Positions 9,773 through 59,196 of a stretch of DNA of 64,000 nt are shown piece by piece (the stretch's first letter is position 1; the number at the start of each line of letters is the position of its first letter). The translations under genes and the position numbers were made by a program. Source of the DNA: Rhynchopus sp. YZ270_cl-10 (lineage: Eukaryota); NCBI GenBank assembly GCA_964035575.1, contig OZ037846.1:186001-250000 (forward strand). Direction: 5' to 3'. The notes beneath the pieces are model-generated. The model did no database searches and was not told the DNA's origin. It saw only the letters and a list, made by a program, of their open reading frames with translations.

Positions 9773-10575
9773 TGGTGTGGCTGAACCCAAAAAAAAGGGT
9801 ATTATTTAGCAGTTTGTTAGCACTTTGTTAGCATGCATTTTTGGGGGGGTGGTGTATAAAAAATTTTTTCCCCACGGGTGTTGGAAAAAAAATTTTTTTT
9901 TTCGTTGGTGAGCTTTTTAACGCCGGCATTTGCATTTCCGAAATCCGTCCGGCCAGTGGTGGGGTCAATTCGCCGAAATGGACAAGTTCTCGTTTTTGGT
10001 CAATTTCCGCAGTATACACAGTATACACAGTATACACAGTATACACAGTATACACAGTATACACAGTATACACAGTATACACAGTATACACAGTATACAC
10101 AGTATACACAGTATACACAGTATACACAGTATACACAGTATACACAGTATACACAGTATACACAGTATACACAGTATACACAGTATACACAGTATACACA
10201 GTATACACAGTATACACAGTATACACAGTATACACAGTATACACAGTATACACAGTATACACAGTATACACAGTATACACAGCATACACAGCATACTCAG
10301 GGGGAAAACTCACTTTGTGGGCGTCGCAGGCGCACGGTACGCGTTTTTAGTGATTTTTTACAGCCCCGTTCTATGCGTTCTTTTGACTCAGCGAGTCGAT
10401 AGCGTTCAACGGTGGGGTCACACATGGGTATGCAAGAGTGGAGGCGCGCCAACAGGGGGAGTGGAAAAACCAAGGTAAAAAAATGTTTTTATACACCACC
10501 CCTAAAAAAAGGGTATTATTTAGCAGTTTGTTAGCAGTTCTTTAGCAGTGAAATTTGCTGGTTTCAGCCACACCA
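9773..10575. mobile_element. Non-autonomous TGG...CCA DNA transposon carrying the 9-bp satellite
   Basis: TIR TGGTGTGGCTGAA / TTCAGCCACACCA; 5-bp TSD TTTTA (9768-9772, 10576-10580); inner inverted repeat GGGGTGGTGTATAAAAA / TTTTTATACACCACCCC. Confidence 0.8.
10011..10298. repeat. (AGTATACAC)n 9-bp satellite, 30 perfect plus 2 variant units
   Basis: Direct reading; reverse complement of the array at 36535-41966. Confidence 0.98.
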
Positions 10576-33525: not shown

Positions 33526-35816
33526 TTACCATCTTCCTCCTCCTCCCCAGCCTCCACCGCCGCCGCCTTGCTTGCCCTTGAACCAACCCTTCTTTGCGTC
33601 TTTCCATTGGTTCTCGCCACGCGACTTGCGGCCAAGAGGCGGGAGCCACTCTGGGATTTCGGTTCCGCTGTTCTTAAGGAGCTCGAGAAGGTCGTCGGCG
33701 TGTTTGCGCTCGACCCCCCATTGGTCGAAGAAGGTGATGGCTTTACCCGTGCGGCCGGCACGTCCAGTTCTCCCGACACGGTGAACCCAGATGTCACACC
33801 CCGATGAAGGGAAGTCGTAGTTGATCACCATCCCGACACCGTCAATGTCAAGACCACGTGCCGCAACGTCGGTTGCAACAATGATGCGCACCTTGCCGTC
33901 CTTGAACTCCTTCAGGGCCCACATCCGCGAGGCCTGGTCCATGTCACCATGGATCGCGAGCGCCTTCATCCCCCCACGCTTGCAGCTCCGTGCCAACCCG
34001 TCGCAGGCGTGCTTCCTGTTGCAGAAGACAAGGATGCTCTCCTTAGTGTCCTCAAGCTTGGCAAGCTCCTTCACAAGGGCAGCCTCCTTCTCGTGTTCGG
34101 GGACGAGCATGAAGGTCTGGGCAATAGAGGAGTTCGCCTTGAGGCCGTCTCCGCCGACCTGTTTGGGATGTATTTTGTTTTTTGAAAAAATTTACAAAAA
34201 AAAAAAAAAAATGAAGAAAGTGTGGAGGAATCCGGACCATCTCAAATAAAAGTTTCGTCTTGAAATACAACAGCCGACACTCGAGTGTCGAGTGGCCCAT
34301 TTTTTTCATTTTCGAGTACTCGTTACTCGTCGAGTACTTTGTACAACCATGCTCTTTGATAGCAATCATCGTAACATACCTGAATGTGGAGCGGGTTCTT
34401 CAGGAATTTGTACGCAATTCTTTGGATCGCCTTGGGCCATGTTGCTGTGAACATAAGGGTCTGGTGCACCTCTGGGAGCTTGCCCATGAGCGCTGTGATG
34501 ACGGGCTCGAAGCCCATGTCAAGCATCTGGTCCGCTTCGTCGAGGACTGCGTACTGGACGCTGTTGAGGTTGGTCACTGGGGGGTTGTCGAGCTCGAGCA
34601 GGTCGGAGAGACGGCCTGGGGTTGCGATCACAATGTGGGAGCCACGACGGAGCTCGCGGATCTGCTTGCCGGAGGGCAGCCCACCGAACACATTTGTCGA
34701 CACAATGCGGGAGGCGTTGCCGAACTTCACGCTCTCGTCGTTGATCTGCACCGCCAGCTCTCTCGTCGGTGCGATGACCAAAGCAAGAGGAGGCTGGCCG
34801 TGCATGATGCGCGGCTGTCTCGGGTCTGTGGGCATGCTCTTCAGGATCAGGCGGAATGCAGGGATCAGAAACCCCAGGGTCTTCCCCGACCCGGTCTTGG
34901 CAATCGCGATCAGGTCGCGTCCGGAGAAGGCAGCAGGCCAGCAGACAGATTGGATGATGGAAGGGGCCTTGAAGCCGGCCTTCTCGAAGGAGCGCTGCAT
35001 GGGTCTGTGGTAGGGGATGTGGAGGGGGTGGGGTGGAGGGGGTCAAAAAGCTTACACGACGGACTTTCCATGTCGGACTGACTAGTCGGGGGTATTACAA
35101 AGTGGAACTTCCTTTCTTTCTTTTGAAATTTCTTTTTTTAGTCGTAACGTTGCGAACTCTACTGATATCGTAAAACTAGTCGTCAAATATTGGTCATTTG
35201 GACCAGTAGAACTACTAGTAGTCCTCCTCTAGTCGGTCGTGGAGAATGGATTCCGGTGGAAGAATTATTCAAAAAAGGCAGATCATAAATGACTGGTGTA
35301 AAAAAAGTGTGGTGATTGTGTGAAGTTCTGGCAATGCGGAATATTTCCCATTTTTTGTGGTGTGTTGTGTCTTCCTTGAACATATTGTTTTCTTTCACAA
35401 AAAAACCCATACTTGTTAATGTAGCTCTCAATGTCAGCGAAGGACTGGTAGGGCCGCTCGACATCACCGTCCCAGAACTTAATGTCGTGCTTCTCGTAGT
35501 ACTGCTCGCGGGTGAGGACGCCGTTCTCCTCTGCCTTTGCCTCCTCAACCTTCTCCTCCTTCTCTGCAGGCACAACGGCGTCACCAGAGTTGGTCTTAGC
35601 CTTCTTCGACGGTTGTGCGTCGGTGTCCTTCTCCTTCTTCTCCTTCTTGCTCTTCTTGGTCTTGGTCTTCTTCGGGGAGTCGGTGGGGAGCGTGGCGAGC
35701 TCGGCATCGCGCTTGCGCTTCTTGCTCACCTTCTTGTCAGCCTTCTCAGCTTTGACAGGTGCTGTTGCAGGCGACATGACAGGGGACGCCTTCGTGTCAA
35801 CATTAGAGTTGCACAT
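33526..35816 (-). CDS. DEAD-box RNA helicase, DBP3-like (DDX5/DBP2 clade), 3 exons
   Basis: Exons 35816-35413, 35004-34380, 34158-33526 (GT-AG, in phase); AKTGSGKT, PTRELA, TPGRL, DEAD, FTATWP, ARGLD, HRVGRTGRAG; Lys-rich N-terminus. Confidence 0.9.
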
Positions 35817-36534
35817 CTTTGAGTTTGTGTAAAATGATTCAATCTGTGAGAGGGGGTTGAAAAAAAGGGGGAATTTTTTGAATAAAACAAAACGAGAAAC
35901 GTTGAGAACATCTGAAAACAGCGAACAGTTTGATGCAATGTTGGCGACAAAAAAAAAGGTCGCCAATATTGCAAGAAAAACCCTCAAAAATCCGCCAATA
36001 TTATTCCGTCAAGGTTCTTGTCCAATTGTATACGGATGTGATCACAGTTTCACGAAAGATAGGGTGTAACTCTGTGTCATCCCGCCGCCGTCGGGAAGGA
36101 GATCAGTGAAGTGGGCAGGGTCATTACGTTTAGGGTAGGGAGAGGCAGGAGAGAGGGATCGTATTACTTTATTTTTTGAGTTTTTTTTGTTTAAAGTGGC
36201 ACCAAAACCTGTCGTATCTCAACCTTTTTATTGCATGCTGCAGAATTTCTTTTTTTTTTTTGTCGTTTTTCTTTAATTTTTTCTGGCGTAATAGAAGTTA
36301 ACCAAAGAAAGGGAAAACACCTCACCTTTCGTTTTAACTGGCATTTGGTTGCACAAAAATCAACCTCGGCTTTTTTTTGAAAACCTGGTTGTATTAGTGA
36401 AGCCACCCTAGAGTGTGCTCCACTATTATTTATTTATGTGGAGCGTTTTAGGGTCTGTGGGATGACGCCCGATGACGGCTGATGACGCCCGATGACGGCC
36501 GATGACCGCACGATTACGTTTTTCTTTTTTTGGG

Positions 36535-36806
36535 TACTGTGTATACTGTGTATACTGTGTATACTGTGTATACTGTGTATACTGTGTATACTGTGTATAC
36601 TGTGTATACTGTGTATACTGTGTATACTGTGTATACTGTGTATACTGTGTATACTGTGTATACTGTGTATACTGTGTATACTGTGTATACTGTGTATACT
36701 GTGTATACTGTGTATACTGTGTATACTGTGTATACTGTGTATACTGTGTATACTGTGTATACTGTGTATACTGTGTATACTGTGTATACTGTGTATACTG
36801 TGTATA
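36535..36806. repeat. (TACTGTGTA)n satellite, left part (30 units)
   Basis: Direct reading; ends ...GTATA at the retroelement boundary. Confidence 0.98.
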
Positions 36807-36996
36807 TTGGGGTTTACCGAGGGAATAGCAAAGCCGAAACTAAAACGTGTAACCCCCCAAAACCCCCCTTGCTTTTTGGGGTTGTTGTTCAACGGGAAAC
36901 CTCCTCGCCAACCACGTACCATCACTGAATTAGGTTCGGGTGGTTTTCCCTTTCAGCTTTTTGTGTCGTAAAAGCTTTTGTATTTTTTATTTAAAA

Positions 36997-38577
36997 ATGG
37001 CACTCCGCGAGCTACCCGAAGAACTGGCGAAGCTGCGTACTCGGTTTGAGTCCGAAGAGGAAGGAGCGCGGTTCTTCTGGAACCCCCAAACTGGCGAGGG
37101 GTCCGCCGACGCTCTTGGCTTCCCGCCGAAACACGCCGCCATCCTCAAGGAACGGTTTTCGTACCCGTACCGCGTGCTCAGTGGCACCTTTGAGGCGGTG
37201 GTGGCAGCGTGGACGGGGGACACTGTCGCGGAGAATGTGTTGACGGTGTACCTGCGTGAGTTCTGCGAAGCCGATGTGCGACCGGACTGGAATCTGATGA
37301 AGATGGTGGGAGCCATCCACGCCCTGAGGGTTCGCTCTTCTTCTGACGAGGCGGATGAGGAACCTGTGCCCGTTTGCAGGTCCAAGAGTCAGTTTGCTTT
37401 TGCGGAGGCGCGGAAGGGCACACCCCATGCCTCCGCCGGTCAAGGCGACGTGCCCGCACCCCAGCAGATGAAAGAATGGATGCTGGGTGAGCAGGCGCAG
37501 GTGCTCCTTGGGCAGGAGGTGGTGATCTCCGGGTACCCCCCTGGAGGGAAGGAGACCCTCCATCACGCAGGCAAGCTGGTTGGCCTGGGGAATAAGGTGT
37601 TTGGTCTTGTGCGCAGCAGTTGCTACAACAACGTCGCAGAGGGCTGTGTGCCCCATGAGGGAGGTGATGAGTTGGTGGCGTTGCCTGTGGCCGGATGGCG
37701 CTACACGCGCATTGTGGCGCTGTCTCTGCATCAGACAGAGCAGGCCCGCCAGAAGATGGGGCACCAGGCAGAAGCGGCGGAGAAGGAGGCGAGCTCGATC
37801 CGGAGTTCCGCAGAAGCCGCACTTGCGCAGCGCGACGCGGAGATTGCCCGCCTCCGCCAGGCGAACCGGCAGCAGGAGGAAGATGCCCGCCTGCAGAGCG
37901 GCATCAACAGTTCGATGGAGGTGCAGATGAGGGAGCTGCAAGCCGAGGTGGACCGACTGAAGGTGTCGCAGTCCTCATCACAAACACACACACACACGGC
38001 CCCCACCTACACACGGGTAAAGACGGACGTGGCGGACGACGGGCTCTGGCACGATGCTGTGGCTGAGAACGGACCGCTACCACCACGCACCAACCCACAA
38101 CCTACAGACGAGCTCGACATGTGGGTCAAAGACCCAGTGGTGGCGGAGACGGTCGAGGAGTGGGCGGACCGTATCCGCAACGACTCGGCGGGCCTCATCT
38201 TGGAGCTCAACCAGTACTTTGTGTCTGGATTGAAGCATGGACCGGGGGGGGCGGCCCTGCAGTTGACGTTTCAGTGGATGCGTATGTGGATACTGGCTGC
38301 GGAGTGGACGCCGTCGTGGAAGGGCACCCCCCACCGCGTCCTCGGCAACATGCTTCTTCGGGAGTTACACATACAATACGCTTTCGCGTCAGAGCGTGTC
38401 CCTCGCAAGGACATCACCCGTGCCACCGCACAGTCGACTCCGGGACATGAAGTGGCTCGGTATGTGCAGACGCGCCCTCCTCCAAAATCACACAAGGGAG
38501 GCAAAGGCGGTGCGGCAGCGCATGGACAGAAGACCGGCCCACCGGGAAACGGGAAGGCCGGGAAGGGGAAACAGTGA
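36997..38577 (+). CDS. ORF1 gag-like protein (526 aa)
   Basis: ATG immediately after repeat A1; central coiled-coil; basic Gly/Lys-rich C-terminus; assignment rests on position only. Confidence 0.75.
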   Translation: MALRELPEELAKLRTRFESEEEGARFFWNPQTGEGSADALGFPPKHAAILKERFSYPYRVLSGTFEAVVAAWTGDTVAENVLTVYLREFCEADVRPDWNLMKMVGAIHALRVRSSSDEADEEPVPVCRSKSQFAFAEARKGTPHASAGQGDVPAPQQMKEWMLGEQAQVLLGQEVVISGYPPGGKETLHHAGKLVGLGNKVFGLVRSSCYNNVAEGCVPHEGGDELVALPVAGWRYTRIVALSLHQTEQARQKMGHQAEAAEKEASSIRSSAEAALAQRDAEIARLRQANRQQEEDARLQSGINSSMEVQMRELQAEVDRLKVSQSSSQTHTHTAPTYTRVKTDVADDGLWHDAVAENGPLPPRTNPQPTDELDMWVKDPVVAETVEEWADRIRNDSAGLILELNQYFVSGLKHGPGGAALQLTFQWMRMWILAAEWTPSWKGTPHRVLGNMLLRELHIQYAFASERVPRKDITRATAQSTPGHEVARYVQTRPPPKSHKGGKGGAAAHGQKTGPPGNGKAGKGKQ

Positions 38578-39769
38578 CTCCCCCTCTTCTCGGCCCGCCC
38601 CCCCTGTACATCCCCAGCAAGTTATTCCCATTGTCCCAACCGCCCCACCAACGCGCGTGTGCAAACGAAGGTGTCCACCTCCGATGCAGCTGTGCCCGCC
38701 AGCCTCCCCGCCAAGTCAAGGGTCACTGCAGCCCCCAGCAGCAACACCGCCGCGCAGCCCCCCCCCAACACACTTACCACACCACACAGATCCCTACCCC
38801 CATCCCGGTATTACCCCCCCATCTCTTTTTGGAGAGGCCGTACTGACGCATGTAGCCACCTCCGGGCGGGTGCGTCCCATATCTCGAGTGAAGGAGACAG
38901 AGGTCAACCCGAAGCAAGCGACCGAGTGGCTGCTAGGCGTGGTGGAGGACATGTGGGCCAAGCGCACGTCGCAACAACGCAAATACCTGTGGTCCAGGTT
39001 CGCAGTGTGGACGGGCCTGCACCAGCTGCCGATGACAGCCGACACAGCGGTGTTGTTCGTCCTTGCCACTCAAGTGTCAAAGCAAGGGCAGCTCACCTAC
39101 GCCAAGGCCCTATCAGGCACCTTCACCCACATCGGCCTGGGCAACCAACCGCTGCTCAGCTTTGCAGCAGCGCTGCGGGCCGCAGGGGCGGCAATTCCCA
39201 CAAGCCAAGCCACCCCGATTCCTCGCAGAACCCTCCTCCAGTGGGCAGAGCACCAGCAGAACGACCTGTGCCTCTGCGCAATGCTAGCTTGGAAAACGGC
39301 CAGCCGTTGGGACGAAGTGCAGAAGTTGGGATCAGAGCAGTTTGTGAAGGTGACGCCCACAGAGGTGATAGTGGATTGGCACACCCTACCGAAGGGGCGC
39401 CGGGGGGACCCCTTCACGCCGTCGAAGTTGGTAGTGGTGACAGGCGCGCTCACGGAGAAAATTGCGTCCCTCTACGGACGGCTGAAGCCCTTCCGCTACC
39501 TCACGGAGACCACCACCGAGGCGCTGACGGAGAAGTGGCACCACACGCCAGGGATGACCTCATTCTCGGGGCACAGCATCAAGAGAGGGGCAGTGACCCA
39601 TCTCCTGTCGTTGCTGGCGGAGAAAAAGCCCGTGAACCCCTCCCTCATTTCCGTGCTGGCGAAGCACAAGGTGGAGGTTGCGCTGTCGCCCACCACCATC
39701 AGGTACGCAGGGGACCCAGTCGCTCTGGCGAAAGCAATCGGCACGCAGGACGTGACGAAATGGCTGTGA
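38447..39769 (+). CDS. ORF2 tyrosine recombinase
   Basis: Catalytic set visible: WKTASRWDE (R), LPKG (K), GHSIKRGA (H-x-x-x-R), LAKHK (H), TTIRY (Y); first ATG 38447, true start uncertain. Confidence 0.9.
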   Translation: MKWLGMCRRALLQNHTREAKAVRQRMDRRPAHRETGRPGRGNSDSPSSRPAPPVHPQQVIPIVPTAPPTRVCKRRCPPPMQLCPPASPPSQGSLQPPAATPPRSPPPTHLPHHTDPYPHPGITPPSLFGEAVLTHVATSGRVRPISRVKETEVNPKQATEWLLGVVEDMWAKRTSQQRKYLWSRFAVWTGLHQLPMTADTAVLFVLATQVSKQGQLTYAKALSGTFTHIGLGNQPLLSFAAALRAAGAAIPTSQATPIPRRTLLQWAEHQQNDLCLCAMLAWKTASRWDEVQKLGSEQFVKVTPTEVIVDWHTLPKGRRGDPFTPSKLVVVTGALTEKIASLYGRLKPFRYLTETTTEALTEKWHHTPGMTSFSGHSIKRGAVTHLLSLLAEKKPVNPSLISVLAKHKVEVALSPTTIRYAGDPVALAKAIGTQDVTKWL

Positions 39770-41421
39770 TGGTGGACAAGTTCGCCCGCAAGCAACACCG
39801 CATCACCAAGCGGTCCCAACACACCCGCCTCCCCTGCACGGACGAAGAACGGGCCTCCCCCCTGCATGCTGTGAACGTGTCCCCCTTGGTATTGAGCAGA
39901 GTCAAAGGCATGATGCGTCCTGCCATCCTGGACAGGTTCAACGAGGTTTGGCAGGCAGCTTTCTACCCCACGGAGCTGTCAGGAGAGGCTTCTGCACATC
40001 CTTCTCGTCTGAGTGCAGAACACGCCGCTGTACTCCAGGATACAGGCATAGCTGTGCGTGCAGACGGACCCGGAGTATGCTGCAACATCCCCTTCACTGT
40101 TGTGGAAGAGAAGCCCACAGGTCTCCGCCAACGATTCATCCTCTGGACTCGTGAGGCCAATGACGTCTTGGATGCTGCCGGCTATGAAGCTCAGGTGCCT
40201 CTGGGTCATGTGTCGAGGTACTTGTCTGCGGTTGAGAAGGAGTGTGGTAGTGTTCGCGACCTGCGATGCGGGTTTTTCCAGGTCGAAATCCCAACTGAGT
40301 CTCGCCGCTACTTCCGCTACACGGACGACAATGGTGTTTGGTGGGAGCTGACGAGACTACCGATGGGTCACTCCTGCGCCCCAGAGCTCATGCACACCAT
40401 CACAGCAGTGATCGGAGGCGACCCCGCATATGTCCAAGAGAAGCACGTCGCGCAGGGAGTGACCGTGCATACGTGGATCGATGGAGTGCGCTTGTGTGGG
40501 TCGCGTGACGACGTAGTTGCTGCAACGAAGCGGATGGACTCTCGCGCCAGCAGCTGTGGGATTACGTGGAAGCCGGAGGACTCTGTCACGGCTAGTGAGT
40601 CATATGTGTTTATTGGTGTTGATTTTAAGCATACGTCCAGTTCAGTGACCCCCTCTCCCAAACTGTTGGACAAAATTTTTTCCCTTGAGTTAAGTGTTGC
40701 ATCTGCGAGTTCTTTGGAGTCCCTGGCGGGCAGACTGCTGCACGCCACCGCCATTGCGGGGGTCTTTCCGGGAAAGTTTTGGTTTACGGTGAAGTTTTTG
40801 AGGCGTATTTCGAACGCTCTCAATGCGGGCAGACGTCTGCCCAGCGACTCTATTGTTATCCCTGCTTCGGTGCGTAAGGAGTTAGCCAGTTGGCGCTCCG
40901 CTGTGTGTATGCCGCGTGTTTTTAAGCCCCCCTCCCCCCATTCTTCCCTTGCTGTTTTTATTGATGCTTCTCTGAAGGGTTGGGGCGGTGTCATTGTGGA
41001 CCGCCGTAGCAACGAAATGACTATTGTAGGTGCTAGTTGGGACTCCCAGGAGTCTGAGCTACACATTAATGTGCTGGAAGCTCTTGCGTTGCGTAACACT
41101 ATAGCCGCCCTTCCCGACTCCGCGGCCGGTGGTAAGGTGGATATCTGGGTTGACAACACTTCTGTGGTGGGTGTGGCCCGGAAGAAAATTTGTACGGCAT
41201 CCAAGATTCTGAATGACGCGGTGGTGCAAGCTCTTGCGCGTTTGGAGCACTTGTGGTGTACAATTTCATTACAGTGGATCAGTACCAAGCTCAACCCTGC
41301 TGACAAACCCTCTCGTGTTCCCCCTTCCTCCCTCTCCTCTCCCAACCTCATGTTTGAGGTCCAACGTGCGGTGCGGTTGTTCTTTACTGGCGTCGGGGCG
41401 GATTCGACTAGCTCGGCCTAG
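39760..41421 (+). CDS. ORF3 reverse transcriptase + RNase H (frame is open upstream to 38578)
   Basis: RT: DLRCGFFQV, RLPMGHSCAP, WIDG (YxDD position), YVFIGVDF; RNase H: FIDASLKGWG, HINVLEALA, VDNTS, NPADKPSR (DIRS-type). Confidence 0.92.
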   Translation: MAVMVDKFARKQHRITKRSQHTRLPCTDEERASPLHAVNVSPLVLSRVKGMMRPAILDRFNEVWQAAFYPTELSGEASAHPSRLSAEHAAVLQDTGIAVRADGPGVCCNIPFTVVEEKPTGLRQRFILWTREANDVLDAAGYEAQVPLGHVSRYLSAVEKECGSVRDLRCGFFQVEIPTESRRYFRYTDDNGVWWELTRLPMGHSCAPELMHTITAVIGGDPAYVQEKHVAQGVTVHTWIDGVRLCGSRDDVVAATKRMDSRASSCGITWKPEDSVTASESYVFIGVDFKHTSSSVTPSPKLLDKIFSLELSVASASSLESLAGRLLHATAIAGVFPGKFWFTVKFLRRISNALNAGRRLPSDSIVIPASVRKELASWRSAVCMPRVFKPPSPHSSLAVFIDASLKGWGGVIVDRRSNEMTIVGASWDSQESELHINVLEALALRNTIAALPDSAAGGKVDIWVDNTSVVGVARKKICTASKILNDAVVQALARLEHLWCTISLQWISTKLNPADKPSRVPPSSLSSPNLMFEVQRAVRLFFTGVGADSTSSA

Positions 41422-41815
41422 CCGATTTACCCCAACGTCTTTTTGCAAGTATATGATTAAAAGAAAAAATAAAGGAACATTTTTGAGTAGGCTAAAGCTA
41501 TTCTTGGGGTTTACCGAGGGAATAGCAAAGCCGAAACTAAAACGTGTAACCCCCCAAAACCCCCCTTGCTTTTTGGGGTTGTTGTTCAACGGGAAACCTC
41601 CTCGCCAACCACGTACCATCACTGAATTAGGTTCGGGTGGTTTTCCCTTTCAGCTTTTTGTGTCGTAAAAGCTTTTGTATTTTCCCTCCCTCCCTCACCT
41701 CCGCCTCCAGCGGATTCGACTAGCTCGGCCTAGCCGATTTACCCCAACGTCTTTTTGCAAGTATATGATTAAAAGAAAAAATAAAGGAACATTTTTGAGT
41801 AGGCTAAAGCTATTC

Positions 41816-41966
41816 CTGTGTATACTGTGTATACTGTGTATACTGTGTATACTGTGTATACTGTGTATACTGTGTATACTGTGTATACTGTGTATACTGT
41901 GTATACTGTGTATACTGTGTATACTGTGTATACTGTGTATACTGTGTATACTGTGTGTACTGTGTA
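41816..41966. repeat. (TACTGTGTA)n satellite, right part (~17 units)
   Basis: Resumes in exact register (CTGTGTA...) after repeat B2. Confidence 0.98.
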
Positions 41967-43033
41967 CTTGTCCATTTCGGCAAATTGACCCCACCACTGG
42001 CCGGACGGATTCCGGAAATGCAAATGCCGGTGTTTAAAAGCTTCACCAAGGATTTCACCGAGGAAAAAAAAAATTTCCCCTAGCACGATGATTCCCGATT
42101 ATGCACGATTATGCACGATTACTCAGGATTACGCACGATGACACCCGATGACGGCCGATGACACCCGATTTAGCGCGATTCACCCCCCCGGAAAACGCTC
42201 CATTATGAGAGCAAATTTTGGGTCTGAAAAACTCAACTCCATTTTTGATTCCCCACAAAAAGGAAGAGAAACGAAAGTTCTGTAAGGGGGGAGGGTTTTT
42301 TCCCCCCCATTTTTTTTTCTTTTTTTTCTTCTTTTTTTCTTATGTTCTTGTGTTCTCCCTGCCTTCACACAACGTACCACCCTAAAAGGTCTTTATCTCT
42401 TATTTTTTCTTCATTTTTTTGACATACGACTTCACGGACCTTGACACTCACATATCTTTCCAAATATTTGTTTTTTTTTTTTTACGATTCGCTTTTGACA
42501 ACCAGAAAACCCCCCGATAGCCTAGTCATGCAAAATAAAAGCGTGGAAACTCAAAAATTTGATTTTGCTTTTCATTCAAAAGCGGAGAGAAACAGAGAGA
42601 GAGAGAGAGCGAGAGAGACGGAACAATAACAATGAATGCCCTCTCCTCACTTCGAAATGTCAAACACGTTCACGGCAGTGTCATCGAAAATACGCTGACT
42701 TTTGTCCAGGGGGATAAAGAAAAATGCAAAAAGGAAAGCTTTGAAGGCATACCATACACATAACCACTTCCTCTTGAGCGCCGAACGCAGCCCAGTAAGA
42801 TAGTGTGTGGTGTTGTATGAGGGAGGGGATGGGGCAGAACGCACGACACGAAAGGCGTGTCGAATATAGATTCCTAATTTAGCGAAAGAACGTTGGTGGG
42901 ATGAGAAAAGCCACAACGCTTATGTCATCTTCACATTCGAAACAAAATCAAACAATTTTTCAAAACAAAAAACAAAAAAACAAAACAAAAAAGTCATGTG
43001 TACGGGGTGCGTAGTGTGTGTGCATGTGTGTGC

Positions 43034-45245
43034 TCACAGCTTCGCCTGCTGCGCAAGCTGCTTCTCACGCTTCTTGCTCCACGACTCAGCAGTGCTGCCG
43101 TCCTCAGCAAGCTTCGCCAGCAGCGGGCACGGCTCCTCACCTGCTGCACGCAGACCCTTCACAACCTCGTCCAGGCCAAGGAGGTCGGCGTACTGTTGTG
43201 GTGTGGTGGTGGTGGAGGATAGAGGATAGAGGGTAGAGGGGGAAGACATCGGTGTGAAACAATAAACATACCTTCATCGGGCCTCCCAGGTAACGCGGGA
43301 AGTTGTACCCGTAGACAAGCGCAACGTCGATGTCGGACGCACGCGAGACAACACCCTCCTCCAGGAGACGGAAGCCCTCGTTGATCACAGGGAAGTACAC
43401 ACGCTGTGCAAGCACCTCGGGGGTGAGGTTCGGGCGTGTCACACCGGTCTCCTTCCACACACGCTGCATGAAGGCTGCCACCTCAGGGTTGGGCTGTGCA
43501 CGGCGCTTCGCGTCGTACACGTACAGCCCCTTCCCGCTCTTCATCCCGAAGTTTCCGTTTGCGAACAGGAAGTCCGTCACGTTCCCCTTGGTGTCCAGTG
43601 TGCCCGCACGCTCCTTCTCGCGTCCGAACAGGTCCAGTCCCACCAGGTCGTTCATGCGCATAGGGCCCATGCGCATACCGAACTTCTCCGCAGCAGCGTC
43701 AATCTCCTCGGGCAGGAAGCCAGAGTACAGCATCGAGGTCGCCCCCTGCTTCCCCATCATCCTGTTCGCAACAAACCCGTGGCAGTTGTTCACAAGCACA
43801 CAGATCTTCCCAATACGCTTTCCAAACGCCATCGCCGTCGCAATCGTGCGTCCAGACGTCTTCGACCCACGCACGTTCTCCAGCAGCGGCATCACGTTCG
43901 CAGGCGAGAAGAAGTGGCACCCCACCACATCCTCAGGACGCGATGTCGACGCAGCAATCTCGTCGATGCTCAGGTAGCTCGTGTTCGTGGCCAGGATGCA
44001 GCCCTTCTTGCACACAGCGTCAAGCTTCCCGAACACCTCCTTCTTGATGTCCATGTTCTCGTACACAGCCTCAATCACCATGTCGCAGTCCTTGAACACT
44101 GCGTAGTCCGTGCCAGACGGCTTGATGTTGCCAAACGCACGCTTTGCACGTGCCTCCTTCATGCTCCCACGCTTCACAGACGTCTCGTAGTTGGCACCAA
44201 TCACCTTCATCCCCTTCTCCAGGAACTCCGGCTTTGCGTCCACAAGAAGCACCTTGATCCCTGCGTTTGCACAGGACATCGCAATGCCTCCACCCATCAG
44301 GCCAGCTCCGATGATCCCAACTGTCTTCAGGGGGGCGGGCTTCGTCTTCAGGCCGGGCACCTTCCAGCAGGCACGCTCTGCGAAGAACATGTACTGCATT
44401 GCCTTGGCCTGGTCGTCGGTCATGAGCGCCATGAACTCTTTCCTTTCGGTGGCCATACCAACCTTGAAGAAGTCACCAGCCGTGGCAGCCTGCACACAGT
44501 TGATGATGGCCTGCGGCGCGTTCTCCCCACGGCGCACCTTGCCCCACTTCTTGCGTGCCATGTCGAACACGGCAGGGCTGCCCACTGCGTTACGGCTGCA
44601 GATCCTGCGGTTCGCAAGGTTCACTCCACGCGAGGCAACAGAGGCACAGAGCTGCACACCTGCAACGACGATGTTCCTGTCCACCACCTCGTCCAACACG
44701 CCCAGCTGCAGCGCCCTCTGGCTGGGGAGGGGTGCACCCTTGCACATCAGCTCGATCGCCTGCTCGCATCCGAGCAGACGGGGCATTCTCTGGGTACCTC
44801 CGGCACCAGGCAGAAGGCCGAGGTTCACCTCAGGCAAACCCAGCATCGAACGGGACGTGGCAATGCGGTAGTGGCAGCCAAGCGACACCTCGCACCCACC
44901 TCCAAGCGCAACACCGTCAATGGCAGCAACAACAGGCTTCGTGCTGGCCTCGATGCTGTGGATGAGCTCCACAAGGTTGGGCCCACGCATGCCTCCGCTG
45001 AACTCAGAGATGTCAGCCCCAGCACAGAAGGCACCGTGTGCACCGGTGACAACAATCCCGTCGACGGTGGTGTCGGCAAGCGCACGCTTCAGGTTCTCGT
45101 CAAGCCCCATGCGGATACCGCTCGAGAGCGGGTTCATCGGGGGGTTGTCGAGCGTGAAGACAGCGATGTTGGACCCCTCGCAGTGGCGCACCTCGTAGTG
45201 CACCTTCCCCTTCGGGACGAACGGCTTCTTCTGTCCACGGGCCAT
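43034..45245 (-). CDS. Peroxisomal multifunctional beta-oxidation enzyme (enoyl-CoA hydratase / 3-hydroxyacyl-CoA dehydrogenase), copy 1
   Basis: Exons 45245-43272, 43192-43034; FCAGADI, ALGGGCE, LPEVNLGLLPGAGGTQR, GAGLMG, EAVYE, TNTS, HFFSPA; C-terminal PTS1 AKL. Confidence 0.93.
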
Positions 45246-47497
45246 TGGAGAGGTTGGGTCTTTGTCTTGTCTGTGGGGTGGTGTGAGTGGAGGGGGATAA
45301 GGGACACATTCGCATATGGGTATCGGGCAGAAAATATCACAACAAATAAAAAGATCCAGCACTACACACCTTTGGGGATATGGAACCCGGGGTGTTGTAA
45401 TAGGAAGTTGCCTACTGGAAAGCTACATTCCAAACTTTTAATTTTAAATATGACATGGCGCGATGCAGAGGAGGCAGGTTGGAGAACAGGGTGGCCTTCA
45501 AAGTCCTGCTCTCCGACGCTGTGGAAGGCGCGACCAAAGTGGGTGGTCTCATGTTGTAGGACGTATGAGACACAACACCATCATGTCACAACATCATCAG
45601 GACTTTTTCCTGAAATCGTATCCTCTGACGAATGACGCGTGTGAGTCGGTCATCGCAGTACTGAAGAGTGGTGGACCAGGCGGCAGGTAATTTGGGGGGA
45701 AACCGGAAGGGGTACCAAAAAGACTGCAGCCATAGCTCACTGCCCCGGTGGAATATTGCGCAAGCTGTGTGACTTCGGTTGGTCACTGTTGCTGAGGCTT
45801 CGGGTCATTTCCTCAGTGCAGACGGAACGTTTGGCAGCTGGGTCGTGAAAGATGGCAATCATCAAAAAGGCAAAGGGGGAGGCGGCAGACAGAGCTGATG
45901 GGGAGCAATGTGATCAACACACACCTGCACCAGGTTGTGTGGGGTTTTGCTTCTTTTTTGATAAATTGTTGGAGTAGTGTAGTTGCCTCGGTTGTGTTGC
46001 CACAGTTGTGCAATCTCCACTGTCCAAAAGTTCACTCACTTTTTTTGAGATCCTTATTTGAAACAGTGCCAGGACACCCCGAGGATGTGCCCACGCTACA
46101 TTTTCATATCAGTGACTGAATCCATCACGAAATGTCAAACTTTTGCTAAATCTGAGTAAAATCTGGCTCATTTCGGGTATTCCCCTCAAACATCCCAAGG
46201 ATATGCAGTTAAGTTTCATGCAAAACTGTGCTAAAGCTAAGTAAACTGCATTTTTCCGGAGTACTGCGCAATAAAATGCAAAAGAAAAATAATCAAATAA
46301 GAAAGCCCTAGTTGAACCCAACTTAACGGCGGGCCACCACGTTGACACATTCCGTGACAGCCACTAAGATGATAGATTTATGCGCGTTGATGCTAAACGG
46401 GAGACAGATCTACATGATATATAACGAAGTGAAGTTGACACAGCGCAAAACGCCTCTGACAGTAGGCACTGACACTTCGCATGAATACTTCGCGTGAATA
46501 AGGATGAAGCCAAGCCTCGCTTAGTCACCTGTATAAATATCAGTGAAAATTTCAAAAAAGAAAAAAAAAAAAACAGACAATGGATATTGCACAACTGTGG
46601 CAACACTACTGAGGCAACTACACTACTCCAACAATTTATCAAAAGAAACAGAAAACCCGGAAAAGTTGGCAAGGTAAACCTGCCTCGTGTTTGGCCAACT
46701 GTTTCTCCATGAAATTGTGGTTAGAACGAAAAATGGATTGCCTGACGGCGATATAACACTTTTCTCGTTAGCCTGCTATAAACACGAATACGTCCGTTTA
46801 CGACGCATCCTTGGGGAAAGAGAACAAAACAGAAACGAAACAATTCTTGGGGGGAAAAAATAACCACTACTAAAAAATGAACCTTCTTCCACAGCAATAA
46901 CACACACGAGAAGCCGTCTTCTTCGCTGGGGGGAATAAATTTCTTTCAGCATCACAACACTCATCACACGGCAACACATGCCCAAGAGGAACCTTGGGCT
47001 GTACATGACAGGGAGGGTATGGGCAATGACATGCTCTTGCCTGGGGAGGTATATTTTTTTTTGTATTGTGCTCAGGTAGCTACGTGCCTTTTAAAAGGCC
47101 ATCGTATATTTTTGTTTCGATACCAGAAGAGAAAAAAAAACAGAATTGGGACGGAAATTGAGAGAAAAAAATAAATGGCAAATATGCAAATGGAATATGC
47201 ACTGCTTAGTCATTGTAGTTGTTTGATGCATTGACTCTTCCACACACACAATCTCACCTGTTGGGGTGGTGGGAGCACGGTTGGATGAGTGAACTACGTT
47301 GACACTTTCCGCTCACAAAGTAGTGTGCGTCAAAAAAAAAAAAAAGAACTTGAAACATACAACCCCCACCCTCCCATCCACTAACCAAAACAAAGTTTAT
47401 AAACTACCCAACTTTCCTCTTTTTTTGATTTTTGATTTTGTTTTTTTGAAAACTTTTAGCACCAATAGTAGACATCCCGAGGATGAGTTTCCACTAT

Positions 47498-47630
47498 TGG
47501 TGTGGCTGAATGGGGGCAAAAAGTACGCAAAAAAAAAAGTGTCAAAAAAATGCGAATCAGCCCTCAAAAATTTTTGGTGCGGGTGAAAAAAGCGCGCATG
47601 AAGTGCGAATCCCCGCCTTCAGCCACACCA
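47498..47630. mobile_element. 133-bp MITE of the TGGTGTGGCTGAA family
   Basis: Same TIR as 9773-10575; 5-bp TSD ACTAT (47493-47497, 47631-47635). Confidence 0.85.
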
Positions 47631-50246: not shown

Positions 50247-52870
50247 TCACAGCTTCGCCTGCTGCGCAAGCTGCTTCTCACGCTTCTTGCTCCACGACTC
50301 AGCAGTGCTGCCGTCCTCAGCAAGCTTCGCCAGCAGCGGGCACGGCTCCTCACCTGCTGCACGCAGACCCTTCACAACCTCGTCCAGGCCAAGGAGGTCG
50401 GCGTACTGTTGTGGTGTGGTGGTGGTGGAGGATAGAGGATAGAGGATAGAGGATAGAGGATAGAGGATAGAGGATAGAGGATAGAGGATAGAGGATAGAG
50501 GATAGAGGATAGAGGATAGAGGATAGAGGATAGAGGATAGAGGATAGAGGATAGAGGATAGAGGATAGAGGATAGAGGATAGAGGATAGAGGATAGAGGA
50601 TAGAGGATAGAGGATAGAGGATAGAGGATAGAGGATAGAGGATAGAGGATAGAGGATAGAGGATAGAGGATAGAGGATAGAGGATAGAGGATAGAGGATA
50701 GAGGATAGAGGATAGAGGATAGAGGATAGAGGATAGAGGATAGAGGATAGAGGATAGAGGATAGAGGATAGAGGATAGAGGATAGAGGATAGAGGATAGA
50801 GGATAGAGGATAGAGGATAGAGGATAGAGGATAGAGGATAGAGGATAGAGGATAGAGGTAGAGGGGGAAGACATCGGTGTGAAACAATAAACATACCTTC
50901 ATCGGGCCTCCCAGGTAACGCGGGAAGTTGTACCCGTAGACAAGCGCAACGTCGATGTCGGACGCACGCGAGACAACACCCTCCTCCAGGAGACGGAAGC
51001 CCTCGTTGATCACAGGGAAGTACACACGCTGTGCAAGCACCTCGGGGGTGAGGTTCGGGCGTGTCACACCGGTCTCCTTCCACACACGCTGCATGAAGGC
51101 TGCCACCTCAGGGTTGGGCTGTGCACGGCGCTTCGCGTCGTACACGTACAGCCCCTTCCCGCTCTTCATCCCGAAGTTTCCGTTTGCGAACAGGAAGTCC
51201 GTCACGTTCCCCTTGGTGTCCAGTGTGCCCGCACGCTCCTTCTCGCGTCCGAACAGGTCCAGTCCCACCAGGTCGTTCATGCGCATAGGGCCCATGCGCA
51301 TACCGAACTTCTCCGCAGCAGCGTCAATCTCCTCGGGCAGGAAGCCAGAGTACAGCATCGAGGTCGCCCCCTGCTTCCCCATCATCCTGTTCGCAACAAA
51401 CCCGTGGCAGTTGTTCACAAGCACACAGATCTTCCCAATACGCTTTCCAAACGCCATCGCCGTCGCAATCGTGCGTCCAGACGTCTTCGACCCACGCACG
51501 TTCTCCAGCAGCGGCATCACGTTCGCAGGCGAGAAGAAGTGGCACCCCACCACATCCTCAGGACGCGATGTCGACGCAGCAATCTCGTCGATGCTCAGGT
51601 AGCTCGTGTTCGTGGCCAGGATGCAGCCCTTCTTGCACACAGCGTCAAGCTTCCCGAACACCTCCTTCTTGATGTCCATGTTCTCGTACACAGCCTCAAT
51701 CACCATGTCGCAGTCCTTGAACACTGCGTAGTCCGTGCCAGACGGCTTGATGTTGCCAAACGCACGCTTTGCACGTGCCTCCTTCATGCTCCCACGCTTC
51801 ACAGACGTCTCGTAGTTGGCACCAATCACCTTCATCCCCTTCTCCAGGAACTCCGGCTTTGCGTCCACAAGAAGCACCTTGATCCCTGCGTTTGCACAGG
51901 ACATCGCAATGCCTCCACCCATCAGGCCAGCTCCGATGATCCCAACTGTCTTCAGGGGGGCGGGCTTCGTCTTCAGGCCGGGCACCTTCCAGCAGGCACG
52001 CTCCGCGAAGAACATGTACTGCATTGCCTTGGACTGGTCGTCGGTCATCAGGGGCATGAACTCCTTCCACTCCGTCTTGAGTCCCACCTTGAAGAAGTCA
52101 CCAGCCGTGGCAGCCTGCACACAGTTGATGATGGCCTGCGGCGCGTTCTCCCCACGGCGCACCTTGCCCCACTTCTTGCGTGCCATGTCGAACACGGCAG
52201 GGCTGCCCACTGCGTTGCGGTTGCAGATCCTGCGGTTCGCAAGGTTGACTCCACGCGAGGCAACAGAGGCACAGAGCTGCACACCTGCAACGACGATGTT
52301 CCTGTCCACCACTTCGTCGAACACACCCAGCTGCAGCGCCCTCTGGCTGGGGAGGGGTGCACCCTTGCACATCAGCTCGATCGCCTGCTCACATCCGATC
52401 AAACGTGGCATTCTCTGGGTACCTCCGGCACCAGGCAGAAGGCCGAGGTTCACCTCTGGAAGGCCCACCACCGAACGGGACGACGCAATGCGGTAGTGGC
52501 AGCCAAGCGCAAGCTCGCACCCACCTCCGAGCGCAACACCGTCAATGGCAGCAACAACAGGCTTCGTGCTGGCCTCGTACATGTTGAACACCTCTCCAGG
52601 CGAAGGTCCCTTCATGCCCCCGCTGAACTCAGAGATGTCAGCCCCAGCACAGAAGGCACCGTGTGCACCGGTGACAACAATCCCGTCGACGGTGGTGTCG
52701 GCAAGCGCACGCTTCAGGTTCTCGTCAAGCCCCATGCGGATACCGCTCGAGAGCGGGTTCATCGGGGGGTTGTCGAGCGTGAAGACAGCGATGTTGGACC
52801 CCTCGCAGTGGCGCACCTCGTAGTGCACCTTCCCCTTCGGGACGAACGGCTTCTTCTGTCCACGGGCCAT
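50247..52870 (-). CDS. Peroxisomal multifunctional beta-oxidation enzyme, copy 2
   Basis: Exons 52870-50897, 50405-50247; near-identical to copy 1; PTS1 AKL. Confidence 0.93.
50428..50854. repeat. (GAGGATA)61 intronic microsatellite
   Basis: Perfect 7-mer array within intron 50406-50896. Confidence 0.98.
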
Positions 52871-53002: not shown

Positions 53003-54781
53003 TCAGGGATTTGGTGAACAACTCTTTGAGTAGAGCAACACAACACTGCACGTCCCAGAAGGAACTGCGCGTGCTGGTGTGCCAACCCCTCCCGCAGCTG
53101 TCCATGCCTCAGCAACGTCAAGGTCAGACTGCTCACCACGCAGGTACCCACGCACGGTATTGTTGTACTCCTCCCAATGTTTCTTCCCACCTATCATGTA
53201 CATCCACTCGTCTATCACTCCACCTGCATCCTGGGCCTTCACAGACTCATCCAAGATAGTGCTTCTGCGAGAAGTACTCACGTCAGCAAGTTCCGCCACA
53301 ACCTGTGCCTCACAGCCAGAGGCAACCTCCACCTTGCACGGAAGCAGACGCAGCTGGTGTTCGCACTCAGCATCGCTGAAGCACATCCTGTTGCACACCA
53401 CATCACACCCCAGCATACGCCCCACACGTTCCAGCCCGTTCACATCACGCACAAGCTCCCCCACCATGCTGAACCGACGCATCACCTCGCAACCCATGTC
53501 ACCACGCAGCACCTTCCCAGTCGCAACACCAGCATTCACCTTCTCACAAAAGCTGCTCGCACCCTTCAGAAGCAGGCTTGCTGCGTGCAGTGCAGATGTG
53601 GCATGTGTCGCACACTGCTTCGAGGCGTTGAACGAACAGTGGATCCTGTCCCCGATGAACACGTCCACCATCCCACGTCTTGTCTCTGTTGCCTGCAGGG
53701 TCTTCAGGAGGAGAGTGGTGAAGAAGGAGGAGTAGGTCGCACTGTCCTTCTCCAGCAAATGCAGGGTGTCCTTCACGTTCAGTGTCAGCAGGGTTGCCTT
53801 GACCGAGGACAGACCCAGTGGCAGGCACACTGGCAAGTCTGAGCCTCTCGAATCAAACGAGTCTGAGCCTCTAAGTGTACTTTGCGTGGACTCCGACTGT
53901 TCATCCACAACTCTGTCCACCTTGTCCACCTCATCCTGAAACGGCAGACACGTCTTCGGGAGGTACGCTTTGTACATGCACAGGTTCTTCTCCAGTCTCC
54001 ACAGGGCAGCAGTCATCCCCTCAGGCAGGTCACCCCCATGCACGTCCAGCATCTCCGCCACCTGTTCCACGTCGTACCCCGCAAGAAGCGACGCAATCTC
54101 CTGCACAACGCTGATCGTGCGCCGCATTGACTCCTGCTCCTTCAGCAAATTGTGCGCAAACCTGCGTGTCACGAAGAAGTCGATCAGGAAGACAGTAATG
54201 GTTGAAGTGAGTGCAGTCGGGGGAAATGATTTCTTGCAGGGAAGGAACTCGCAGTCAGTTTCGCTCCTGAATTTCTCTCTCCTGCTGTGTTCACCCTCCT
54301 GCGGTGTCAACCCAGGAAGGTCAAACAACCCAAACCTGAAGGATTCCTCACATGCCATCAGGAGAAGCCACACCACTATCATAGCAACGAAGCCTGCACT
54401 GTACCGTGCTGCGACTTGCATCACAAGCAACAGGTCCACAACCACGATGAGAAGTGGCCAACCAGAATAACTAAGTGCACGTGTGTCCAAGTCCCATGCG
54501 AACATACAAATGCCGAACAAGTACAACATACCCACCACGAACCTGGTGTGCAGATGCTGTTTGCAGAGCACCTTACCAACAACAATCCAGCAGCCAATGT
54601 TGAATGCAATCACCCCTATCATGTTAAGGTTGCGTCCGTGTCCGTAGTACCCGTATACCACATAAGTGAAGAGACTCGCGACAGTTGAGGCCACACAGAA
54701 CGCAAACATGATGGTGCGCTTCTTCACCTCGTCCGCACTGAGAGACCCGTCAATGGTCAGTGCGCTGTTCAGGCACCGCAT
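53003..54781 (-). CDS. Multi-TM protein with degenerate class III cyclase domain (pseudo-cyclase), copy 1
   Basis: TM region homologous to 1020-3128 (EESFRFGLFDLPG, VQEIASLLAGYDVE); cyclase-like IGD, NAGVATG, FSMVG. Confidence 0.85.
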   Translation of the reverse strand: MRCLNSALTIDGSLSADEVKKRTIMFAFCVASTVASLFTYVVYGYYGHGRNLNMIGVIAFNIGCWIVVGKVLCKQHLHTRFVVGMLYLFGICMFAWDLDTRALSYSGWPLLIVVVDLLLVMQVAARYSAGFVAMIVVWLLLMACEESFRFGLFDLPGLTPQEGEHSRREKFRSETDCEFLPCKKSFPPTALTSTITVFLIDFFVTRRFAHNLLKEQESMRRTISVVQEIASLLAGYDVEQVAEMLDVHGGDLPEGMTAALWRLEKNLCMYKAYLPKTCLPFQDEVDKVDRVVDEQSESTQSTLRGSDSFDSRGSDLPVCLPLGLSSVKATLLTLNVKDTLHLLEKDSATYSSFFTTLLLKTLQATETRRGMVDVFIGDRIHCSFNASKQCATHATSALHAASLLLKGASSFCEKVNAGVATGKVLRGDMGCEVMRRFSMVGELVRDVNGLERVGRMLGCDVVCNRMCFSDAECEHQLRLLPCKVEVASGCEAQVVAELADVSTSRRSTILDESVKAQDAGGVIDEWMYMIGGKKHWEEYNNTVRGYLRGEQSDLDVAEAWTAAGGVGTPARAVPSGTCSVVLLYSKSCSPNP

Positions 54782-56262
54782 CGTTGGCCTTTTGATCCTC
54801 ACAAACCTTTGCTATGTGTGGAGCAGGGGTGTATGGATGTGTGTTGTGTGCACTGGTGGGTGGTGTGGGTTCTGTGTTGGGAGATGGACGTAACCACCAC
54901 AACCAGTACTTCACACAGAACTTAATCTCACAGGTAACCAACTATACGTGTCTCAGTCCCATATGACAACACCCTATCCCGAAGAAAGACACGCAGCCGT
55001 CACCTCACGTATCTCCAATTCGTGGACTTTTGCGACTTCGTCCCCAGCATCTGCTCTCCATGCAACCAACGGGGATCAGTGGCACCTGGTTTTGGCTGCA
55101 TACAAAAGCTCCCGCTTCTGGTTATTATTCCGTTTAGCAAAGCGAGAGAAATACTGTATTTTTCGTTTGCATTTCTCGGTGGGTTTTTATGTCCTGTTGT
55201 TAGCTGCAGCAAACGTTTGAAACGGGGGTTTTTTTTTTCGCACTGCTTCCCCGTTCTGGAGTAAAACATTCACCAAATGCCAGTTACCACCAAACCATCA
55301 TGTGCACACAAAATATGCAAGCCTAGCAGGCAGCAGCAAAACCAGCTGCAAAAAAAGGCAGCGAAGCCACCACCAAGGCACCGACCAAGCAAACGCCAAA
55401 CGCAAACCAGCACCCTAGAGCAGAGCGTCCGCAAGCAACAGACAAGCGCATGGCACAGAAACGGCCTAGGCAGGAATAGTGCTGCTGGAGGAGAAGAGGA
55501 AGAGCGGAACCTGCAGTGCCGGTTTCGTGACCACACCTTTCGTGTCACCGGCGTCGCAAGGCTGCGGTCTCATCCCCCGGACACTGCGGGATCGGGGTGA
55601 GGGGGCGAGGGGGTGCGTGGTGCGTGCCCAATGAAGGGATCACCTGACTGGTGTCTCCAACGAGGGCTCACTGGAAGACCAGCGGGAGCAGCTGTCTGAT
55701 GGAAGACGAGGAGAGGCTGAAGCGGGTCCACGAAGCAACGTCGTCGTGCACTCTCGTTGGGTAAGAACACCACATTCTCATCTCGTTCATCACTCGATAA
55801 ATGACGGCGTGCTTTACATTTCGTAGAATCATGAATTCGACACAGATTGGTACTAAACTGGACCAAACATTTCCCAAACACAGTTATCAAGAAAAGTCTG
55901 TTGAGCATGAAGCAAGTGCCAGATGTAAATCTGAGCAAACACAACAGGAGGCTAGTGGCGGCAGGAGTTTGTCTATTTCTCTAGGAAATCGTGTCCCAAC
56001 CCCCCTTAAACATTCCCACACCTGCCATTCGAAAATCACCTTCTCGTACAGGATTTTAACTCATCGCGCTCATCTTGTCAAAAACTAAAACCTTGACCTT
56101 GCGACACCAAATTATAAACGACTGGGCTTCCTGTGCTCTCGCAAGGGAGGTGTAGCTACACATCTGTCCGAAGACCGCGCCGCCATCTTTCTTTCTGGGT
56201 CATAATGTCACAACGCCCCAACCCAAAGGTCGCTGACATCAACTCGCCTAAACAGTCTACTT

Positions 56263-57984: not shown

Positions 57985-58120
57985 CGTTGGGCTTTTGATC
58001 CTCACAAACCTTTGCTATGTGTGGAGCAGGGGTGTGTGGATGTGTGTTGTGTGCACTGGTGGGTGGTGTGGGTTCAGTGTTGGGAGATGGACGTAACCAC
58101 CACGCTAAATATGCCTCCTG

Positions 58121-58250
58121 CACCTCATCCTGAAACGGCAGACACGTCTTCGGAGGTACGCTTTGCACCTCCTCGGGTTGTTCTCGCCAAGGTCAGAATG
58201 TGTAACTAGGAAGGTACCCACGCACCACTGTGTTGTGCTGCTCCCTTTCT
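58121..58250 (-). pseudogene. Internally deleted relic of a pseudo-cyclase paralog (second copy at ~62066-62195)
   Basis: CACCTCATCCTGAAACGGCAGACACGTCTTCGGAGGTACGCTTTG matches coding 57130-57175 with a 1-nt deletion, followed by a decayed match to the C-terminal coding region. Confidence 0.6.
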
Positions 58251-59196
58251 TCTCATCTGTGCAGCTGCTGACTACCAATGTGTGGACCTAGGTGGGTGTC
58301 CTTGTCTCTGGAGGGGGGAGGAAAAAAACTGTGTACTGAGTATTCGTCTTGCTTTCATCTGAGATAACCGTTCCCCCCACAGCTTAATGTCGCGAGGGTT
58401 CACTTCCTTATTGTTTAACCACGCCACCAGCTGTAAAACTGTATGTAGTAGTGGTCGCAACTATGTGAAGGTTGTGTCAAAGCGTCAGGAATAGACGTCT
58501 TATCAGGTGGAGAAGTGCCCTCACTATGCAATATGAGATTCTCTGGGTTTAGTAATGAAACCCGGTCTGCAGACACGAATCCCGGGACCAAGAACAAAAA
58601 TTTTACTTTTGCCATTTTCAGGTGATCACTACGGTTCTTGTGGTAAATTTTGTGCACAAACTGGCTTCTGGAACCCAAAAACCAAACGACAGGGTTCCCC
58701 CCCAATATTTTCCCCAGAAAAATCCGGATTTTTACAGGGGTTCGGGAGGGACCATGGCCCCCGCGAGAAAATGGGCTTTGGAGGTTGTAGATGACCCCCC
58801 GTGGTAATGTGACCCCAGCATACAGAACATGTGGCTCGCTGTGTCAAAGAAGTAGAATAAAAAGAGATGGTAAAATCTAAAAAAATATAAAAAAAGTAGC
58901 GTACCGTGCGCCCGCGGCGCTGTGTTGCTGGCTATTTGATGCTGATATATTCCCATTGATCTTCCGTGCATTGCCCTTTTTTTTTAAGGGGGCTTCGGTG
59001 CAAGCGACGAGTACATTCACTTTCAACAACATGTTCCAACTGCAGCACTGTAATGACTGCGTAGCGCCATACAATGAATAAAGCAAATACCCCTTGCCCA
59101 CCTCTACAAGACAACACAGCTATCAAGCTTAACATGGCCGCTAGCAAACCCAAAACGTTTTCTCAACGCTGCGGCAGAGCAGACTTGTCTTTGCTG

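Follow-up and report, generated by a model that had tools for sequence, protein, structure and literature searches.

Several described mobile elements bear on the locus analysed here. VIPER-like retrotransposons have the gene order gag, a tyrosine recombinase (YR), then reverse transcriptase and RNase H (RT/RH), together with split repeats (PMC6681497). TATE, from Leishmania braziliensis, occupies a precise site in the telomeric hexamer, accompanied by a TT duplication (PMC2696322), types 1 and 2a of Ngaro favour virophage elements in Cafeteria burkhardae (PMC8547959), and DIRS-1 seems to prefer inserting into itself (PMC7192593). [quoted passage not shown] We examined a 64,000-nucleotide stretch of Rhynchopus sp. 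YZ270_cl-10 (contig OZ037846.1, positions 186,001 to 250,000; hereafter the window), in which an apparently VIPER-type retrotransposon sits within an array of 9-mer repeats that is itself carried by a small non-coding element with TGG...CCA ends. On balance we lean, by no great measure, towards the reading that the YR of this retrotransposon prefers a short motif concentrated in the 9-mer array, and hence inserted there, at a site where it would do no harm.

An initial annotation had reported three nested layers at this locus, and all three (the outer element, a 47.0-unit array and a 5,009-bp insert) were recovered with the same boundaries. Their parts, with terminal inverted repeats (TIRs), target-site duplications (TSDs) and open reading frames (ORFs), are:

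36439..42202, no strand assigned: outer TGG...CCA element, non-coding, 755 bp once the insert is subtracted; TIRs occupy 36439-36449 and 42192-42202
36434..36438, no strand assigned: left TSD, TTATG
42203..42207, no strand assigned: right TSD, TTATG
36461..36518, + strand: subterminal 10-mer repeats on the left, directly oriented with respect to the set at 42083-42169
36535..36806, + strand: 9-mer array to the left of the insert, 30.2 units with 100% matches
41816..41966, + strand: 9-mer array to the right of the insert, 16.8 units
41967..42049, + strand: non-repetitive module adjoining the array; over 83 bp it shares 94% identity with 9905-9986 of a second TGG...CCA element
36807..41815, + strand: putative VIPER-type YR retrotransposon, 5,009 bp
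36807..36986, + strand: repeat A1, 180 bp, identical to A2
36997..38577, + strand: ORF1, gag-like by position, 526 aa
38267..39769, + strand: ORF2 frame, predicted YR, conserved part from approximately 38897
39760..41421, + strand: ORF3, RT and RNase H, 553 aa counted from its ATG; frame open from 38578
41398..41503, + strand: repeat B1, 106 bp, identical to B2, with a 24-bp overlap with the RT/RH stop
41504..41683, + strand: repeat A2, 180 bp; B1/A2 is the predicted circle junction
41710..41815, + strand: repeat B2, 106 bp

The insert divides the 47.0 units of the array into 30.2 on the left and 16.8 on the right, with junctions reading ...GTATA/TTGGGG and ...CTATTC/CTGTG. No TSD of 1-8 bp is present, and one of 9 bp or its multiples would be indistinguishable from none inside a 9-mer array. 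Any clean insertion without a TSD resumes the array in register, and the exact register is therefore uninformative on specificity; what stands of the in-register split described previously is the clean junctions and the lack of a short TSD, not the register as evidence of targeting. The split direct repeats, ordered A1...B1-A2-B2 with a 26-bp spacer between A2 and B2, are 100% identical, and the three retroelement ORFs are uninterrupted. A mis-join of two loci is rejected, since the outer TIRs and TSD correspond on the two sides of the insert. The first ten bases of repeat A (36807-36816) match 7/10 to TTAGGG repeats and 9/10 to TTTAGGG repeats; this telomere-like start is possibly chance, or possibly a relic of telomere targeting.

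The window was scanned for elements with TG...CA ends, an inverted repeat of at least 11 bp and an exact 5-bp TSD, with 30 block-shuffled windows as control. Three TGG...CCA elements are present in the 64-kb window and none in any of the 30 shuffles. The outer element, for which the initial annotation had claimed a TTATG duplication, does have TTATG on both flanks and a perfect 11-bp TIR, TGGAGCGTTTT. The other two are:

9773..10575, - strand: second TGG...CCA element, 803 bp, 13-bp TIR, TSD TTTTA; the same 9-mer array, no retroelement
47498..47630, no strand assigned: third TGG...CCA element, 133 bp, TIR (13 bp) shared with the second element, TSD ACTAT; no array

With TIRs, TSDs, several copies and no coding capacity, these elements (133, 755 and 803 bp, with two TIR types among them) appear to be miniature inverted-repeat transposable elements, or non-autonomous DNA transposons, and no transposase was found among the long ORFs inside them. 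They resemble Ginger2/TDD transposons in the LTR-like (long terminal repeat) TG...CA ends and in the 5-bp TSD seen in TDD-4 and TDD-5, and differ in ending in TGG, in that no transposase was found here, and in TIR length (PMC2836005); it is on TIR length, 11-13 bp compared with approximately 50-180 bp, that membership was rejected. The TGG...CCA ends may have originated as solo LTRs.

The 9-mer array of the second element (10010-10300, 32.3 units, opposite strand) was absent from the initial annotation and supports its claim that such arrays are carried by non-coding TGG...CCA elements. That annotation had proposed mapping every array; within the window, both of the two arrays lie inside TGG...CCA elements, of which the array is a cargo here. 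Origin of the array as a by-product of retroelement insertion is ruled out by its presence at 10010-10300 without one. A search for the 9-mer array gave one match, situated at the end of a contig. The two array-bearing elements have the array and the adjacent 83 bp (94% identity) in common while their TIRs and subterminal repeats differ, a pattern that argues for a probable recent exchange of array and module between subfamilies. The fold of the module is unremarkable (z between -0.6 and +1.4), so that neither a Helitron with hairpin ends nor a structured SINE (short interspersed element) gains support, and Rfam gave no matches. A second kind of array-carrying element, Mutator-like, occupies 15009-17405; it has inverted ends of approximately 200 bp (88% identical), an apparent 9-bp TSD (by eye) and, within each end, arrays of (TGGGTAC)n and (CCTGGGTA)n.

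Each of the three TGG...CCA elements lies no more than about 15 bp from a copy of a dispersed motif of approximately 60 bp (36370-36427, 10586-10641 and 47441-47497); a fourth, partial copy (973-1010) is without an element. The DNA elements may thus have a target preference of their own. This proximity of all three to one motif would make the loci insertion hot spots, and so bears on the suggestion that the retrotransposon favours TGG...CCA elements or their repeat clusters, through the element or its chromatin, and not the 9-mer. There is a precedent, in that virophage elements (EMALEs) house 91% of type 1 Ngaros, at varied positions (PMC8547959). The suggestion supplies no mechanism, however, and because the array accounts for over half of the outer element in its empty form, a single case does not separate it from a preference for the 9-mer; we regard it as very improbable.

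The preference that we favour, for a motif within the array, draws on the size of the target. Without the insert, the two 9-mer arrays make up 1.2% of the window and 2.2% of the non-coding DNA roughly estimated for it, and all short-period arrays together make up 4.2%. The arrays contain 75 of the 87 TATACT sites in the window and 75 of the 76 TATACTG sites, so a preference for six or seven bases would be enough to send most insertions there. Other YR elements set an example for the choice of repeats, namely TATE (PMC2696322), CryptonV (PMC8869645) and, at CAYCG, CryptonF-1 (bioRxiv 10.1101/2022.05.23.493040). Following established models for split-repeat YR elements, the RNA of the insert would be copied into a circle, with a circle junction corresponding to the internal B1/A2 junction, and the YR would recombine the circle into its target. 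Preference would be for a few bases around TATA/CTG and not for the whole host element, so that arrays dispersed by DNA elements would act as sinks for insertions. With both outer ends intact, the two elements could conceivably be co-mobilised as a 5.8-kb composite. We put forward only tentatively, and with doubt, a larger proposal: that a VIPER family in a diplonemid has switched to a fixed-phase interstitial 9-mer borne mainly by, and swapped among, TGG...CCA subfamilies, such that the DNA elements breed landing sites and may carry the retrotransposon as a 5.8-kb passenger, in a three-tier dependency with a scarless recombinase.

Several observations weigh against a motif preference. There is a single insertion, and the second array, equally long, is empty. 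At the crossover the circle junction (TATTC/TTGG) and the target (TATA/CTGT) share no bases; TATTC and TATAC are alike at 4/5 positions, but one base off register. Published models for DIRS and Crypton elements call for a short motif in common (PMC7192593; bioRxiv 10.1101/2022.05.23.493040), as when CryptonF-1 recombines CACCG with CAYCG (bioRxiv 10.1101/2022.05.23.493040), and none is shared here. By its motifs the insert sides with VIPER, for which the accessible portions of PMC6681497 and PMC12278014 name no target. The chance estimate comes from one 59-kb stretch, its non-coding share being taken from a rough list of coding regions. Finally, the intergenic DNA here is dense with other, nested repeats, which makes chance nesting plausible.

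By chance nesting we mean that a VIPER family with little sequence preference left a copy that survived in dispensable repeat DNA, an explanation we consider possible though rather unlikely. The single case, the empty second array, the want of in-register homology between junction and target, and the repeat-rich intergenic setting are all as it would have them, and a prior of 0.02 for a repeat-targeting family with a target size of 5% gives a posterior for targeting of just 0.29. Against it, the target is approximately 1-4% of the available DNA, for which priors of 0.05-0.2 give posteriors of 0.51-0.96; across the whole range of priors (0.02-0.2, all of them assumed) the posterior is 0.29-0.96. 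The sister element TATE is, moreover, repeat-targeted (PMC2696322).

The insert encodes three predicted proteins. ORF1 has no Pfam match at the curated cut-off and no CCHC box. For ORF2 there was no YR match in Pfam, nor any in a sequence search against solved structures; its frame encodes the motifs TASRW (39296), HSIKRG (39572), AKHK (39659) and IRY (39698). A structure model made from a four-row alignment (predicted local distance difference test score 61) gave Cre/Tre as top matches in Foldseek (E 3e-5, with 29 matches at E 0.001 or better), and comparison by VIA-align gave phage integrase catalytic domains, of which the best is HP1 integrase (Z 10.7, root-mean-square deviation 3.9, 143 aligned). 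Catalytic residues R137, H226, H257 and Y270 are invariant in all four alignment rows, and the model predicts ORF2 to be a tyrosine recombinase with a Cre-like fold. Matches of ORF3 to RT and RNase H are weak and fall under the curated cut-offs. The RT/RH frame is open directly after the single gag TGA (38575-38580), sharing the gag frame and extending over 947 codons; read-through of the gag stop could yield a Gag-RT fusion.

ORF3 has 69 homologues, of which the named ones are mostly Diplonema papillatum proteins (38-55% identity); one Trypanosoma theileri protein is 34% identical. The latter is annotated as a TOR kinase, yet it aligns across RT/RH and the label is likely to be wrong. These closest named relatives, along with the presence of a GT-AG intron in a gene nearby, make a diplonemid the likely host. 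The RT motif of the insert is WIDG, compared with W[IV]DN in most relatives. In a quick-method tree, which included no labelled VIPER or TATE sequences and left out the row for metagenome locus L003, the insert falls with weak support among D. papillatum and nameless relatives, apart from T. theileri. VIPER and TATE motifs were translated by eye from supplementary files 10 and 11 of PMC6681497, the files being assigned to the two families from their headers and Tables 1-2. A Crithidia fasciculata copy in file 10 has TASRW, HSIKRGA and LAKHK in the YR and LTRLPMG in the RT, the same as the insert; the copies in file 11, taken to be TATE, have motifs unlike it (AARAGD, SLRKGA and TLPTG).

Gene order, repeats and these motifs read by eye place the insert, at the level of sequence, as VIPER-type and not TATE-type. 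It has the order gag, YR, RT/RH, split repeats and no 1-8 bp TSD, as the initial annotation of a recently inserted gag-YR-RT/RH element had indicated; the repeats are arranged A1...B1-A2-B2, and the predicted YR fold comes with its catalytic residues. The gene order and repeat arrangement are those of VIPER in Trypanosoma cruzi and C. fasciculata; repeat A is 180 bp here and 173 bp in T. cruzi, and the overlapping RT frame is similarly long, 947 codons here and a 948-aa alignment there (PMC6681497). Unlike VIPER, for which no satellite target is given in the accessible portion of PMC6681497, the insert sits in a satellite, and it differs also in its likely diplonemid host, in the 34% RT identity to the T. 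theileri relative, and in WIDG for W[IV]DN. With TATE it shares its layout as a YR retrotransposon and a fixed-phase position in a tandem repeat (PMC2696322, PMC6681497), although that repeat is an interstitial 9-mer without TT duplication and not the telomeric hexamer.

Three other memberships were considered. TATE was rejected because the flanks are 9-mer without a TT duplication and no tandem TTAGGG occurs in the window; DIRS1-like elements, which have terminal repeats in inverted orientation and a complementary region inside, because there are no inverted pairs of at least 20 nt in 35000-44000. Ngaro elements have the YR downstream of RT/RH; the insert, with its YR upstream, was rejected as one.

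Relatives of the window's proteins are present elsewhere. The RT protein cluster has six members on nine contig records (perhaps from more than one assembly), eight of the nine in entries with a longest contig of 0.46-1.56 Mb, and the gag cluster also has six members. Full-length members differ from the window proteins by 0-6 residues beyond the start residue (99-100% identity), and the window gag has one substitution otherwise present on one contig only; these differences indicate that the near-identical members are distinct copies or alleles. Such near-identical RT proteins on nine contig records point to a young, multi-copy family, and the identical A and B repeats and unbroken ORFs agree with the recent insertion proposed initially.

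An alternative is that the array was entered once and the retrotransposon was then moved or duplicated with the TGG...CCA element, other copies being passengers. The outer TIRs and TSD are perfect and the copies nearly identical, as this would have it. However, the retroelement codes for intact machinery of its own, the identical split repeats indicate recent reverse transcription (PMC6681497), and the 5.8-kb composite is seven times the size of the empty element; we think such composite amplification improbable.

Ten junction-spanning reading frames were compared with the protein collection and none was present. For the + strand frame of repeat A, 0/1 candidates scored; for the - strand frame, the sole match (P0081) is the internal B1/A2 frame, on three contigs. 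These outcomes carry no information, the junction frames of the window itself being likewise uncalled. The 5' end of the insert had no matches among viral contigs. Scans for related loci returned no viral, three metagenome and one genome locus, all of them 29-45% relatives and three of them under 2 kb. Distant VIPER-type elements occur on a metagenome contig (L003, 121-6299) and in a bacterial metagenome-assembled genome (L004, 1-1819). L003 continues into bacterial-looking genes and is without split repeats; both are likely to be eukaryotic contamination or chimeras.

Each layer of the arrangement has a counterpart elsewhere. Like Tx1L in Tx1D (PMC6719617), the retrotransposon has its proposed target inside a DNA transposon, but Tx1 is a non-LTR element of established specificity, whereas the insert is a YR element with a specificity only proposed. 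The Ngaro case is alike in placing a split-repeat YR retrotransposon within another mobile element of a flagellate, and unlike in that the EMALE host is an autonomous virophage and insertion positions vary (PMC8547959). CryptonV shares YR-mediated insertion in repeats, though as a DNA transposon without RT. Tetris is likewise a non-autonomous inverted-repeat element that bears and spreads a tandem array, but of 220-bp units within long TIRs and, in the accessible portion of PMC4079207, with no mention of a retroelement tenant. In the genome paper on D. papillatum the names TATE, MULE and Helitron appear (PMC10161547), and PMC12278014 mentions Diplonema solely for low transposon diversity. Thus the initial view of the locus as undescribed needs qualification: the ingredients have precedents in TATE, CryptonV, Tx1L/Tx1D and Ngaro in virophage elements, and it is the three-tier combination that was not found in searches of the open-licence literature (Repbase reports lying outside this scope), including the accessible portions of PMC10161547 and PMC12278014; PMC4157794 likewise yielded no pertinent account.

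Elsewhere in the window, 53003-63938 and 1020-3128 contain related membrane-protein genes in tandem, a family that may be receptor adenylate-cyclase-like and whose members within the array are 94-98% identical. Two gene copies at 43137-45245 and 50372-52870 are 97% identical and have a GT-AG intron with approximately 63 units of a 7-mer in one copy and approximately three in the other. At 7003-7852 a 283-bp unit is present in three tandem copies over the 5' end of a gene, similar to the repeat-bounded genes described for D. papillatum (PMC10161547).

We propose that the locus represents a new VIPER-type family of a known class, for which a satellite target is plausible. If the preference is false, there is still an intact multi-copy VIPER-type family, together with small TGG...CCA elements, in a likely diplonemid. 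Target choice by DIRS-1 was described in 2020 as not yet experimentally investigated (PMC7192593); if the preference is true, the locus would offer a YR retrotransposon, intact and active in recent time, whose target is simple and defined, and so open the choice of target by YRs to direct tests. Among VIPER-like elements, repeat targeting would then extend beyond TATE and telomeres, and the abundance of a retrotransposon's target could be set by another transposon.

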